Shown: positions 58,800 to 60,101, numbered from the stretch's first letter. The stretch is 64,000 bases of DNA from Chlamydiales bacterium (GCA_031292375.1 JARLHF010000021.1:1785-65784), one strand, 5' to 3'. Numbers and translations: made by a program. Notes: generated by a model not told the origin, from the letters alone.

Positions 58800-60101
58800 T
58801 TATACAAGCAAGAAAGCTCGGTCCCATAAAGTGTCCTTGTGTTCGGTGAGGAGTAATGAGAGGGCAATGCCTACTGCACCTGTAAAGAGTCCTGGATCGT
58901 CAATCCAGTGGTAATTCGTGTGATTATCTACATAAACTGATTGGAATCCAAAAGGGCTATGAGGACGATAGAAACTTTTAAGATCATCTTCTAGATTCTT
59001 AACCTGCTTCCATAAAAAAGGGTTTTGTGTTTCTTCAGCCATACGGCAGGTAATGGCTAAAACACCCGCACGACCATTAGAAAATGATGTTCCCATCATA
59101 TTCCATTCTTTTATGGGCTTAGAGAATAATGAGACAAACAATTTTTCCGCATAATCAGTTAGAGAAAAATCTTTTAAAGCCTTTCCTGTTAGATACAAAG
59201 CTCTTGCAACACAAGGTATTCCAGACCACCAGGTGTCATAATTGATTTCAAAGAGTGAGGGACAAGAAGATGTTCTAGCATCTAAAGTGTTGGGAAAAAG
59301 TGTTCCATATTCAGAAGTGCATGCTTGATTTTTTATCCACAGTGCTAGTTTAAGAGCTGTTTCTTGTAAATGTTCTACATGCACTTCTTCCTTTATTGCT
59401 AGAGCTAGTGCAGAAAGGCAGCCTACAATGCCAATAGGGGTATTCATAAAGAAAGCCCCTTCAGGATATTTTATGCGCTCTTCGTCGGCTAAAAGGTCTT
59501 TTGGAGCAATATGCCATGCTGGTTGTGCGTTGGAGCCTTCTTTATTAAAAAAATTGACTAGCCATTTGGTAATGGAGGTTGCAAGCTGCAAAAAAACAGA
59601 GTCATTTTTTCGAAGTAATGCGTAAGCGAGTATTCCAGTAACTCCGGACATTAAGTTGCAAGAATGAAAAGAGGTTGTCTCTGAGGTATTCAAACGCTTA
59701 ATTTCAGCTTCAACATATTCCACAAGTAATTTATCAAGAGTTTCCTGAAGAGATTGATAATATTTGCCCTGATTGGAGCAAAGATACACTGAAAAGCAGA
59801 GCCCTGCAATTCCTGAGAAGAGAGATGTGTCGTTAAAGCCATTCACTTCAGCTTTACGAATAGCCTCATTTAGATAGGTGTGAGAAAGTTTTCTCCACGT
59901 TTCTTGAGGATCAATCTTATCCATAACAGCGTAAAAGCATGCAATACCTGGATAGCCTTCAAAAAAAGCCGTTTCATTCCATAAGTTATTGTGGAACTTA
60001 CCTCTTGTTATGGAGTGTGTTATTGTTTCTTTGACGTTAAGAGGGTTTTGGATTTTTTCTGCTATATCTTTACAGATATGTAAGTAGTGGTGCATAGACA
60101 A
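58800..60101 (-). CDS. LanC-like paralogue lacking the catalytic His and all three Zn ligands (pseudo-cyclase)
   Basis: 433 aa. The same seven Gly-motif repeats are present (LFSGIAGLCF, LMSGVTGILAY, ...LFTGAVGIALS). AHG is replaced by PIG (59438..59430), WCYG by WWSG (59231..59220), and CHG by SNG (59081..59073). Confidence 0.85.
   Translation of the reverse strand: MSMHHYLHICKDIAEKIQNPLNVKETITHSITRGKFHNNLWNETAFFEGYPGIACFYAVMDKIDPQETWRKLSHTYLNEAIRKAEVNGFNDTSLFSGIAGLCFSVYLCSNQGKYYQSLQETLDKLLVEYVEAEIKRLNTSETTSFHSCNLMSGVTGILAYALLRKNDSVFLQLATSITKWLVNFFNKEGSNAQPAWHIAPKDLLADEERIKYPEGAFFMNTPIGIVGCLSALALAIKEEVHVEHLQETALKLALWIKNQACTSEYGTLFPNTLDARTSSCPSLFEINYDTWWSGIPCVARALYLTGKALKDFSLTDYAEKLFVSLFSKPIKEWNMMGTSFSNGRAGVLAITCRMAEETQNPFLWKQVKNLEDDLKSFYRPHSPFGFQSVYVDNHTNYHWIDDPGLFTGAVGIALSLLLTEHKDTLWDRAFLLV

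Follow-up and report, generated by a model that had tools for sequence, protein, structure and literature searches.

A conserved LanC paralogue that has lost its catalytic centre in a chlamydial epidermin-like lanthipeptide cluster

A gene cluster for an epidermin-like lanthipeptide in a Chlamydiales MAG encodes, beside an apparently normal LanC cyclase, a second LanC-fold protein in which the whole catalytic centre has been replaced, yet which has been retained under selection in a family of 77 distinct related sequences. We refer to this gene as psiC. The protein probably now works as a non-catalytic helper, most likely of the LanB dehydratase, although its catalytic inactivity is inferred from sequence and its binding to the precursor or to LanB is likewise inferred.

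Results

The psiC locus

The window analysed here is a 64,000-nucleotide stretch of DNA (GCA_031292375.1 JARLHF010000021.1:1785-65784). Its minus strand carries, between 53.9 and 60.4 kb, a class I lanthipeptide cluster in the transcription order lanA-psiC-lanC-lanD-lanB, with further candidate cluster genes on the opposite strand. The features of the locus are as follows.

60156..60356 (-), lanA, a 66-aa epidermin/mutacin-1140-type precursor with leader box EYDLDL and predicted core ITSRSLCTPGCGNTGTNNSFCC (Pfam Gallidermin 1.5e-12; NCBIfam lantibio_gallid 8.9e-13 and FDLD family)
60118..60146 (-), a 12-bp perfect hairpin without a U-tract between the lanA stop and the psiC RBS (RNA fold -20.5 kcal/mol, z -2.0), possibly an attenuator or mRNA-stabilising element, a function inferred only
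60102..60109 (-), Shine-Dalgarno-like AAGAAGGA, 6 nt upstream of ATG 60095
58800..60095 (-), psiC, a 431-aa predicted LanC-fold protein lacking all catalytic and Zn residues (Pfam LANC_like 1.5e-38)
60072..60074 (-), codon of Cys8, a family-specific residue in the N-terminal helix (Cys in 67 of 77 psiC sequences; Val, Ile or a gap in canonical LanC)
59655..59657 (-), codon of Asn147, replacing the catalytic Asp141 of NisC (Asn in 53 of 77 psiC sequences)
59430..59438 (-), P220-I221-G222, replacing A-H-G (NisC His212)
59220..59231 (-), W289-W290-S291-G292, replacing W-C-Y-G (NisC Cys284, Tyr285)
59070..59081 (-), S339-N340-G341-R342, replacing C-H-G-(hydrophobic) (NisC Cys330-His331), with Arg or Lys at 342 in 60 of 77 psiC sequences
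57473..58762 (-), canonical LanC cyclase with Glu, His220, Cys290, Cys333 and His334 intact (LANC_like 1.8e-58; MadC 1.6e-62)
56904..57476 (-), LanD, an EpiD-like flavoprotein Cys decarboxylase (Pfam Flavoprotein 4.3e-27)
53914..56925 (-), LanB dehydratase, full length (Lant_dehydr_N 8.8e-150; Lant_dehydr_C 1.4e-49)
52042..53904 (+), Clp/ClpV-like single-AAA+ protein, with hydrophobic membrane segments predicted by inspection of the translation, which recurs in orthologous clusters
50183..51961 (+), ABC exporter with transmembrane and nucleotide-binding domains (Pfam ABC_membrane and ABC_tran), candidate LanT
49082..50173 (+), DUF3419 protein with a weak methyltransferase-like match at the edge of the cluster, of uncertain membership

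The housekeeping genes rnc, radA, hemC and hemD lie further out at 43.8-47.4 kb, with two unannotated ORFs between them and the DUF3419 gene. The predicted core peptide matches the gallidermin/mutacin models and reproduces the Ser/Thr/Cys pattern of mutacin 1140 and epidermin, including the C-terminal Cys-Cys needed for an AviCys ring, and near-identical cores occur in the orthologous clusters. With a Gallidermin-family precursor ending in Cys, LanB, an intact LanC and LanD, the cluster is of epidermin type; however, no subtilisin-type LanP leader protease and no LanI or LanFEG immunity protein was recognised by Pfam among the proteins scanned between 41.8 and 62.4 kb, a scan that did not cover all small ORFs.

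A LanC-fold protein without a catalytic centre

The preliminary description of this locus held that one of two tandem LanC paralogues has lost every catalytic position relative to its neighbour, and our analysis confirms that observation. All three codon blocks lie where they had been placed (PIG at 59438..59430, WWSG at 59231..59220 and SNG at 59081..59073). BLASTP against the neighbour (27% identity, E 1e-38) aligns them with AHG (His220), WCYG (Cys290) and CHG (Cys333-His334), respectively, and the neighbour's residue numbering was also correct. HMMER alignments to MadC (8BYK) and NisC (2G02), as well as profile alignments, give the same equivalences. An AlphaFold2 model of psiC (pLDDT 84.3, pTM 0.88) superposes on MadC with TM 0.89 and on NisC with TM 0.75, and no alignment restores a ligand, an outcome that had been named beforehand as one that would overturn the observation. 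Thus N147, I221, W290, S339 and N340 replace Asp141, His212, Cys284, Cys330 and His331 in NisC numbering, with residue roles taken from NisC (PMC9889658).

Several details of the preliminary description required correction or extension. The gene had been drawn from 60101, but its real start is ATG 60095 rather than TTG 60101, which abuts the RBS; the resulting 431-aa product is 100% identical to an NCBI protein (P0001) from a Chlamydiales MAG, and orthologues all begin M-x-H. Loss of the Asp141 equivalent, where the neighbour has Glu, is an addition to the positions originally listed. The seven GxxG repeats ascribed to both proteins are in fact six strict motifs plus one degenerate motif in each, psiC's fifth being GIPC and the neighbour's first GYPS. 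The loss of the catalytic residues is beyond chance, as the His and the three Zn ligands are invariant, and the Asp position is Asp or Glu, in 106 canonical LanCs retrieved in the same profile search.

The protein nonetheless belongs to the LANC_like fold family (PF05147), scoring 132.7 bits against a cutoff of 23.2 over profile positions 5-350 of 350, and its model has the alpha,alpha-toroid with the SH2-like/beta extension.

A family of psiC-type sequences

A word-indexed search found 16 orthologues at 33-47% identity, and all that carry an organism name are chlamydial; a search for related loci with a 7-sequence alignment gave only 3 genome loci and 2 metagenome loci. The taxonomic range of psiC rests on six named records, all Chlamydiota. 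An exhaustive profile search of 1.84 billion representatives, followed by profile alignment, cleanly separated 77 distinct psiC-type sequences, with scores from about 690 down to about 280 bits, from 106 canonical LanCs. The window protein scores 627 bits against the family profile, whereas its canonical neighbour scores 295. None of the 77 has the His212 equivalent, and 50 have no Zn ligand, 25 have one and 2 have two. In a neighbour-joining tree, 76 of the 77 sequences, including the window protein, form one pure clade, whose sister group is a small set of canonical LanCs that includes the partner LanCs of three of these clusters. This suggests a single old duplication followed by loss of catalysis, although the tree carries no bootstrap support and both monophyly and the sister group should be regarded as provisional.

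The window protein has the marks of the family: an N-terminal M-x-H-x-x-x-(I)-C, Asn at Asp141, a residue other than His at His212, loss of at least one and usually all Zn ligands, Arg or Lys after the former CHG, and Arg162. Family-specific conserved residues are few, namely Ile7, Cys8, Ile51, Phe54, Arg162, Asp309, Glu369, Pro378, Pro401 and Ala407, plus Arg/Lys342. The remodelled pocket is semi-conserved (Asn147 69%, Tyr/Phe221 64%, Arg/Lys342 78%), and no invariant new polar residue replaces the old set. We infer that the basic residue and the frequent Trp at position 290 fill the vacated metal site. The window copy itself deviates from the family consensus at several otherwise conserved positions (C146 for Y, E237 for G and F267 for W).

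Selection on psiC

psiC diverges no faster than the true LanC, whether 7 or 10 clusters are compared; over the 10 clusters, mean pairwise identity is 40.1% for psiC, 39.7% for LanC, 35.3% for LanB and 54.2% for LanD. As the nearest relative of the window gene is only 47% identical and synonymous sites are saturated, dN/dS (Nei-Gojobori) was calculated for two closer orthologue pairs, taken from related loci that are numbered here with the prefix L. For L013 against L018, psiC gives dN/dS 0.13 (dS 0.78). For L011 against L019, psiC gives 0.24 (dS 0.18) and LanB 0.22 (dS 0.19). Column entropy shows where constraint was lost: the mean over ten active-site columns is 2.83 bits in psiC against 0.21 bits in the 106 canonical LanCs, and the three former Zn-ligand columns are among the most variable in the protein, at the 84th-96th entropy percentile, whereas all other columns are slightly more conserved in psiC (2.28 against 2.49 bits) and the three extension segments are equally or better conserved.

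Genomic context of psiC

Fifteen neighbourhoods were examined. The commonest gene order is lanA-psiC-lanB, followed in varying order by lanC, often lanD, and in several clusters a PF00144 hydrolase gene. psiC lies directly beside lanB in 8 of the 12 clusters that show lanB, with gaps of 4-55 nt or overlaps of 4-28 nt, and directly downstream of lanA in 7; in the window itself, however, it is next to lanA and lanC, not lanB, and one orthologue (L004/L005) is an orphan with no LanB within 10 kb. LanD is present in 8 of the psiC clusters seen.

Three contexts are especially informative. L015 has psiC-B-C but no LanD within 10 kb, and neither of its two precursors ends in Cys, one ending ...GNSFCCTCR. 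L011 and L019 have only psiC and LanB plus an unknown 418-aa protein, without LanD or LanC; their two precursors share the NPFDIDxREL leader box, and one core has no Cys while the other has one. This arrangement recurs on 13 contigs. In L017, which has next to LanD a precursor whose only Cys is the C-terminal one, it is the partner LanC, not psiC, that keeps Asp and His while losing two Zn ligands. psiC thus tracks LanB and the precursor rather than thioether or AviCys chemistry.

Discussion

The preliminary interpretation, that this LanC paralogue was stripped of its catalytic and Zn residues but retained for function rather than decaying, is supported and extended by our data. We propose that psiC is a catalytically dead descendant of a class I lanthipeptide cyclase, kept as a non-enzymatic subunit of the chlamydial epidermin-type lanthipeptide synthetase, a reading that we hold with only moderate confidence. 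The beta-strand/SH2-like extension, which psiC retains along with the toroid, is proposed in NisC and MadC to hold the leader peptide and/or dock onto LanB. In this view, psiC would bind the precursor (leader box (D)PFD(I/L)D) and/or LanB, and act as an adaptor or chaperone that presents or holds the peptide during tRNA-Glu-dependent dehydration, leaving ring closure to the intact LanC and C-terminal decarboxylation to LanD. Our analysis establishes the loss of all five catalytic positions, purifying selection, family-wide relaxation of only the active-site columns, tight linkage to lanA and lanB, and persistence without LanC, LanD or Cys-containing cores; physical binding to LanA and LanB, the benefit that this would give, and the absence of Zn and of cyclase activity are inferences.

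Such a role is not without precedent, as NisC binds the leader and NisB/NisT, and the SH2-like domain of class I LanCs has been proposed to serve LanB complex formation (PMC9889658; PMC7378552), although whether an inactive NisC helps the nisin complex is disputed (PMC7378552). Other observations weigh against our reading. Firmicute epidermin, gallidermin and mutacin clusters manage, as far as is known, with one LanC, so that the need for an extra subunit is unexplained. Pairwise-distance correlations do not single out LanB as the partner (psiC-B 0.64, psiC-C 0.69, psiC-D 0.81), and the semi-conserved pocket could indicate ligand binding or residual chemistry rather than a passive scaffold. 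Of the roles suggested in the preliminary description, the scaffold or substrate-chaperone idea fits best, whereas a helper role in AviCys ring closure is disfavoured by the LanD-less clusters L015 and L011/L019. The alternative metal site that had been suggested from the Cys residues of GIVGC and SGIPC is not supported, as the former (Cys226) is present in only 38 of 77 members and Cys is not among the six commonest residues at the position of the latter (295).

It is conceivable, though unlikely on present evidence, that psiC is instead an active, metal-independent cyclase, perhaps for one particular lanthionine ring or as a dedicated closer of the C-terminal AviCys ring, where the enethiolate made by LanD is a better nucleophile than a thiol and would not need Zn activation. 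Zn-free cyclisation exists, as class III LanKC cyclase domains lack the ligands (PMC7268733; structures 8SAM/8SAP were among our fold hits) and the class V AviCys cyclase RosX has a Zn-free pocket (PMC12291118), a reminder that lack of Zn ligands alone does not prove inactivity. The frequent presence of LanD and the semi-conserved pocket are also compatible with this idea. However, psiC persists where LanD is absent and no precursor ends in Cys, and with LanB alone and a Cys-free precursor core; the former active-site columns are among the most variable in the family, the acid/base His is never retained, and L017 points to the partner LanC as the AviCys closer. It is tempting to speculate further that psiC is a metal-independent enzyme or gatekeeper acting on LanB-generated intermediates through the remodelled pocket (Asn147, aromatic 221, Arg/Lys342) and the N-terminal Cys8. 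Perhaps it holds glutamylated or dehydrated peptide to impose the order of decarboxylation first and cyclisation later, or perhaps it catalyses a Zn-free addition or other new chemistry on dehydroamino acids. We consider this improbable, although it is not excluded and would make psiC a new functional class of LanC-fold protein.

A role after modification, in which psiC would be a cytoplasmic holder or escort that hands the modified precursor to the ABC exporter and/or the conserved, putatively membrane-anchored Clp-like AAA+ protein, or would sequester the peptide for self-protection, is likewise doubtful. In its favour, a Clp/ClpV-like AAA+ gene accompanies psiC in the window and in six related clusters (L001, L003, L007, L015, L016 and L018), no LanI, LanFEG or LanP homologue was seen, and LanC and LanC-like domains are reported to contact the LanT transporter (PMC7378552). 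Yet no AAA+ gene was detected in L011/L019 or L017, L012 has only an unmatched 553-aa ORF upstream of psiC, and the short L013 and L014 contigs show none. In addition, psiC has no signal peptide or membrane segment by inspection of its translation and model, whereas a lipid II-binding lantibiotic threatens the cell from outside the membrane, and gene coupling is to lanB and lanA, not to the transporter genes. That psiC is merely a functionless relic of a lanC duplication is very unlikely. In favour of that reading, all of its catalytic residues are gone, the window copy departs from consensus at conserved positions, and one relative (L008) is split by a frameshift, although LanB is split in the same contig, which suggests assembly error. 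This reading is contradicted by the retention of intact ORFs across 77 sequences down to about 30% identity, by the dN/dS values, by divergence equal to that of the true LanC, by the conservation of non-active-site columns, and by the gene's own RBS and first position after lanA.

Among characterised proteins, NisC (PDB 2G02/2G0D) and MadC (8BYK) share the fold, architecture and Pfam family (PF05147) of psiC, and are, like it, stand-alone proteins of about 430 aa encoded beside lanA and lanB. psiC differs in the replacement of all five catalytic residues, as well as of Tyr285 and the second Gly of the fifth GxxG, in forming a separate clade with its own markers (Cys8, Arg162 and Arg/Lys342), and in co-existing with a canonical LanC. 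As it lacks the defining catalytic features of a LanC cyclase, it should not be annotated as lanthionine synthetase C. The cyclase domains of class III synthetases (e.g. ThurKC 8SAM and PneKC 8W7A) are also LanC-like toroids without the Zn-ligand triad, but they are C-terminal domains fused to lyase and kinase domains and are needed for cyclisation, whereas psiC is stand-alone, matches the NCBIfam LanKC model at only 30.7 bits against a cutoff of 575, is structurally much closer to class I LanC (TM 0.53-0.55 to LanKC against 0.89 to MadC), and sits in a tRNA-dependent LanB pathway that already has a Zn-LanC. Class V LanX/RosX (PMC12291118) is similarly a homologue of another enzyme family, without that family's expected catalytic role, that accompanies LanD-containing pathways and binds the leader, showing that apparent pseudo-enzymes in these clusters can have real roles; its kinase fold is unrelated to the toroid, however, and RosX is catalytically required for AviCys, whereas psiC occurs in clusters without LanD and with Cys-free precursors. 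Compared with the epidermin, gallidermin and mutacin 1140 clusters (EpiA-B-C-D type), which share the precursor pattern and LanB, LanC and LanD, the present cluster has a chlamydial host, an extra dead LanC and a conserved AAA+ protein, with a PF00144 hydrolase in relatives, and no recognised LanP, LanI or LanFEG.

Literature searches, limited to open-access papers, for chlamydial lanthipeptides, for a second or inactive LanC and for lanthipeptide pseudoenzymes found no description of chlamydial lanthipeptide clusters or of a conserved inactive LanC in class I pathways. Our analysis documents epidermin-like, presumably lipid II-targeting, lantibiotic clusters in Chlamydiae, and heterologous production of these peptides may fail without psiC. 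Class I lanthipeptide synthesis is normally described as LanB plus one Zn-dependent LanC, whereas psiC represents a deep, selectively maintained lineage of LanC-fold proteins with the catalytic centre erased, which is embedded in LanB pathways, apart from the orphan orthologue, and sometimes has no cyclisation chemistry to do. The L011-type clusters, with LanB, psiC and a Cys-free precursor, offer a natural separation of function in this respect. The psiC lineage implies a non-catalytic job for the LanC scaffold, such as precursor handling or assembly of the dehydratase complex, of a kind that has been suspected for NisC but never cleanly separated from catalysis.

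Accessory and flanking genes of the psiC clusters

A Clp/ClpV/ClpB-D1-like single-AAA+ protein recurs in the window and in six of the lanthipeptide clusters that contain psiC, the LanC-fold paralogue (L numbers denote the related loci examined):

window 52042-53904 (+), AAA+ protein
L001 2100-4922, AAA+ protein
L003 16257-18185, AAA+ protein
L007 51-3237, AAA+ protein
L015 6129-9167, AAA+ protein
L016 16291-18450, AAA+ protein
L018 3915-6092, AAA+ protein

The window copy has hydrophobic, membrane-like segments, as judged by inspection of its translation. This is not a recognised lanthipeptide gene; its product may serve in export, immunity, or unfolding of the precursor.

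In addition, a PF00144 beta-lactamase-fold serine hydrolase (AmpH/class C-like) is a frequent member of these clusters, in which it is usually found next to psiC or LanB:

L001 11329-12621, PF00144 hydrolase
L003 14441-15802, PF00144 hydrolase
L012 11251-12612, PF00144 hydrolase
L013 2310-3602, PF00144 hydrolase
L014 6038-7396, PF00144 hydrolase
L018 8831-9262, PF00144 hydrolase

The hydrolase is absent from the whole 64-kb window. Because no LanP was seen, it is a candidate leader peptidase or envelope-directed immunity factor.

A perfect 12-bp hairpin (−20.5 kcal/mol) without a U-tract was detected between the lanA stop codon and the psiC ribosome-binding site (window 60118-60146 (-)). It resembles the partial terminators that raise the lanA-to-enzyme mRNA ratio in other lantibiotic operons. 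In the window, at 60730-62381 (-) and 41818-43209 (+), the cluster is flanked by an LplA/B-type lipoate ligase and a response-regulator-GGDEF diguanylate cyclase, and a Fic-domain protein lies further upstream, none of which shows an evident link to the lanthipeptide genes. An orphan psiC orthologue (protein P0015; L004 7728-11302, also L005) was found in a Parachlamydiaceae MAG with no LanB, LanC, LanD, or LanA within 10 kb. This gene is preceded by one encoding a 718-aa protein with no Pfam match, and is followed by AbiEi and nucleotidyltransferase genes.

Variation in precursors and partner enzymes

The related clusters also differ in the precursors and enzymes that accompany psiC. Two precursors (L014 1450-1680 and L015 9672-9884) carry the epidermin-like C-terminal half but end in ...GNSFCCTCR instead of ...SFCC, and L015 has no LanD within 10 kb. 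This variant apparently replaces the AviCys ring with something else. In L017 (9095-15775), the cluster order is precursor-LanD-psiC-LanB-LanC, and the only Cys of the precursor is the C-terminal residue. The partner LanC in this cluster keeps the Asp141 and His212 equivalents but has WAHG and CYG, so that only 1 of 3 Zn ligands remains. Perhaps this is a naturally Zn-free LanC that closes only an AviCys ring.

A minimal psiC-LanB cluster with an unknown 418-aa protein is present in L011 (10001-16461) and L019 (10001-15668). Here, two tandem precursors share an NPFDIDxREL leader, and one core is Thr/Ser/Pro-rich with no Cys. The product is, presumably, a linear, dehydroamino-acid-rich peptide rather than a lanthipeptide.
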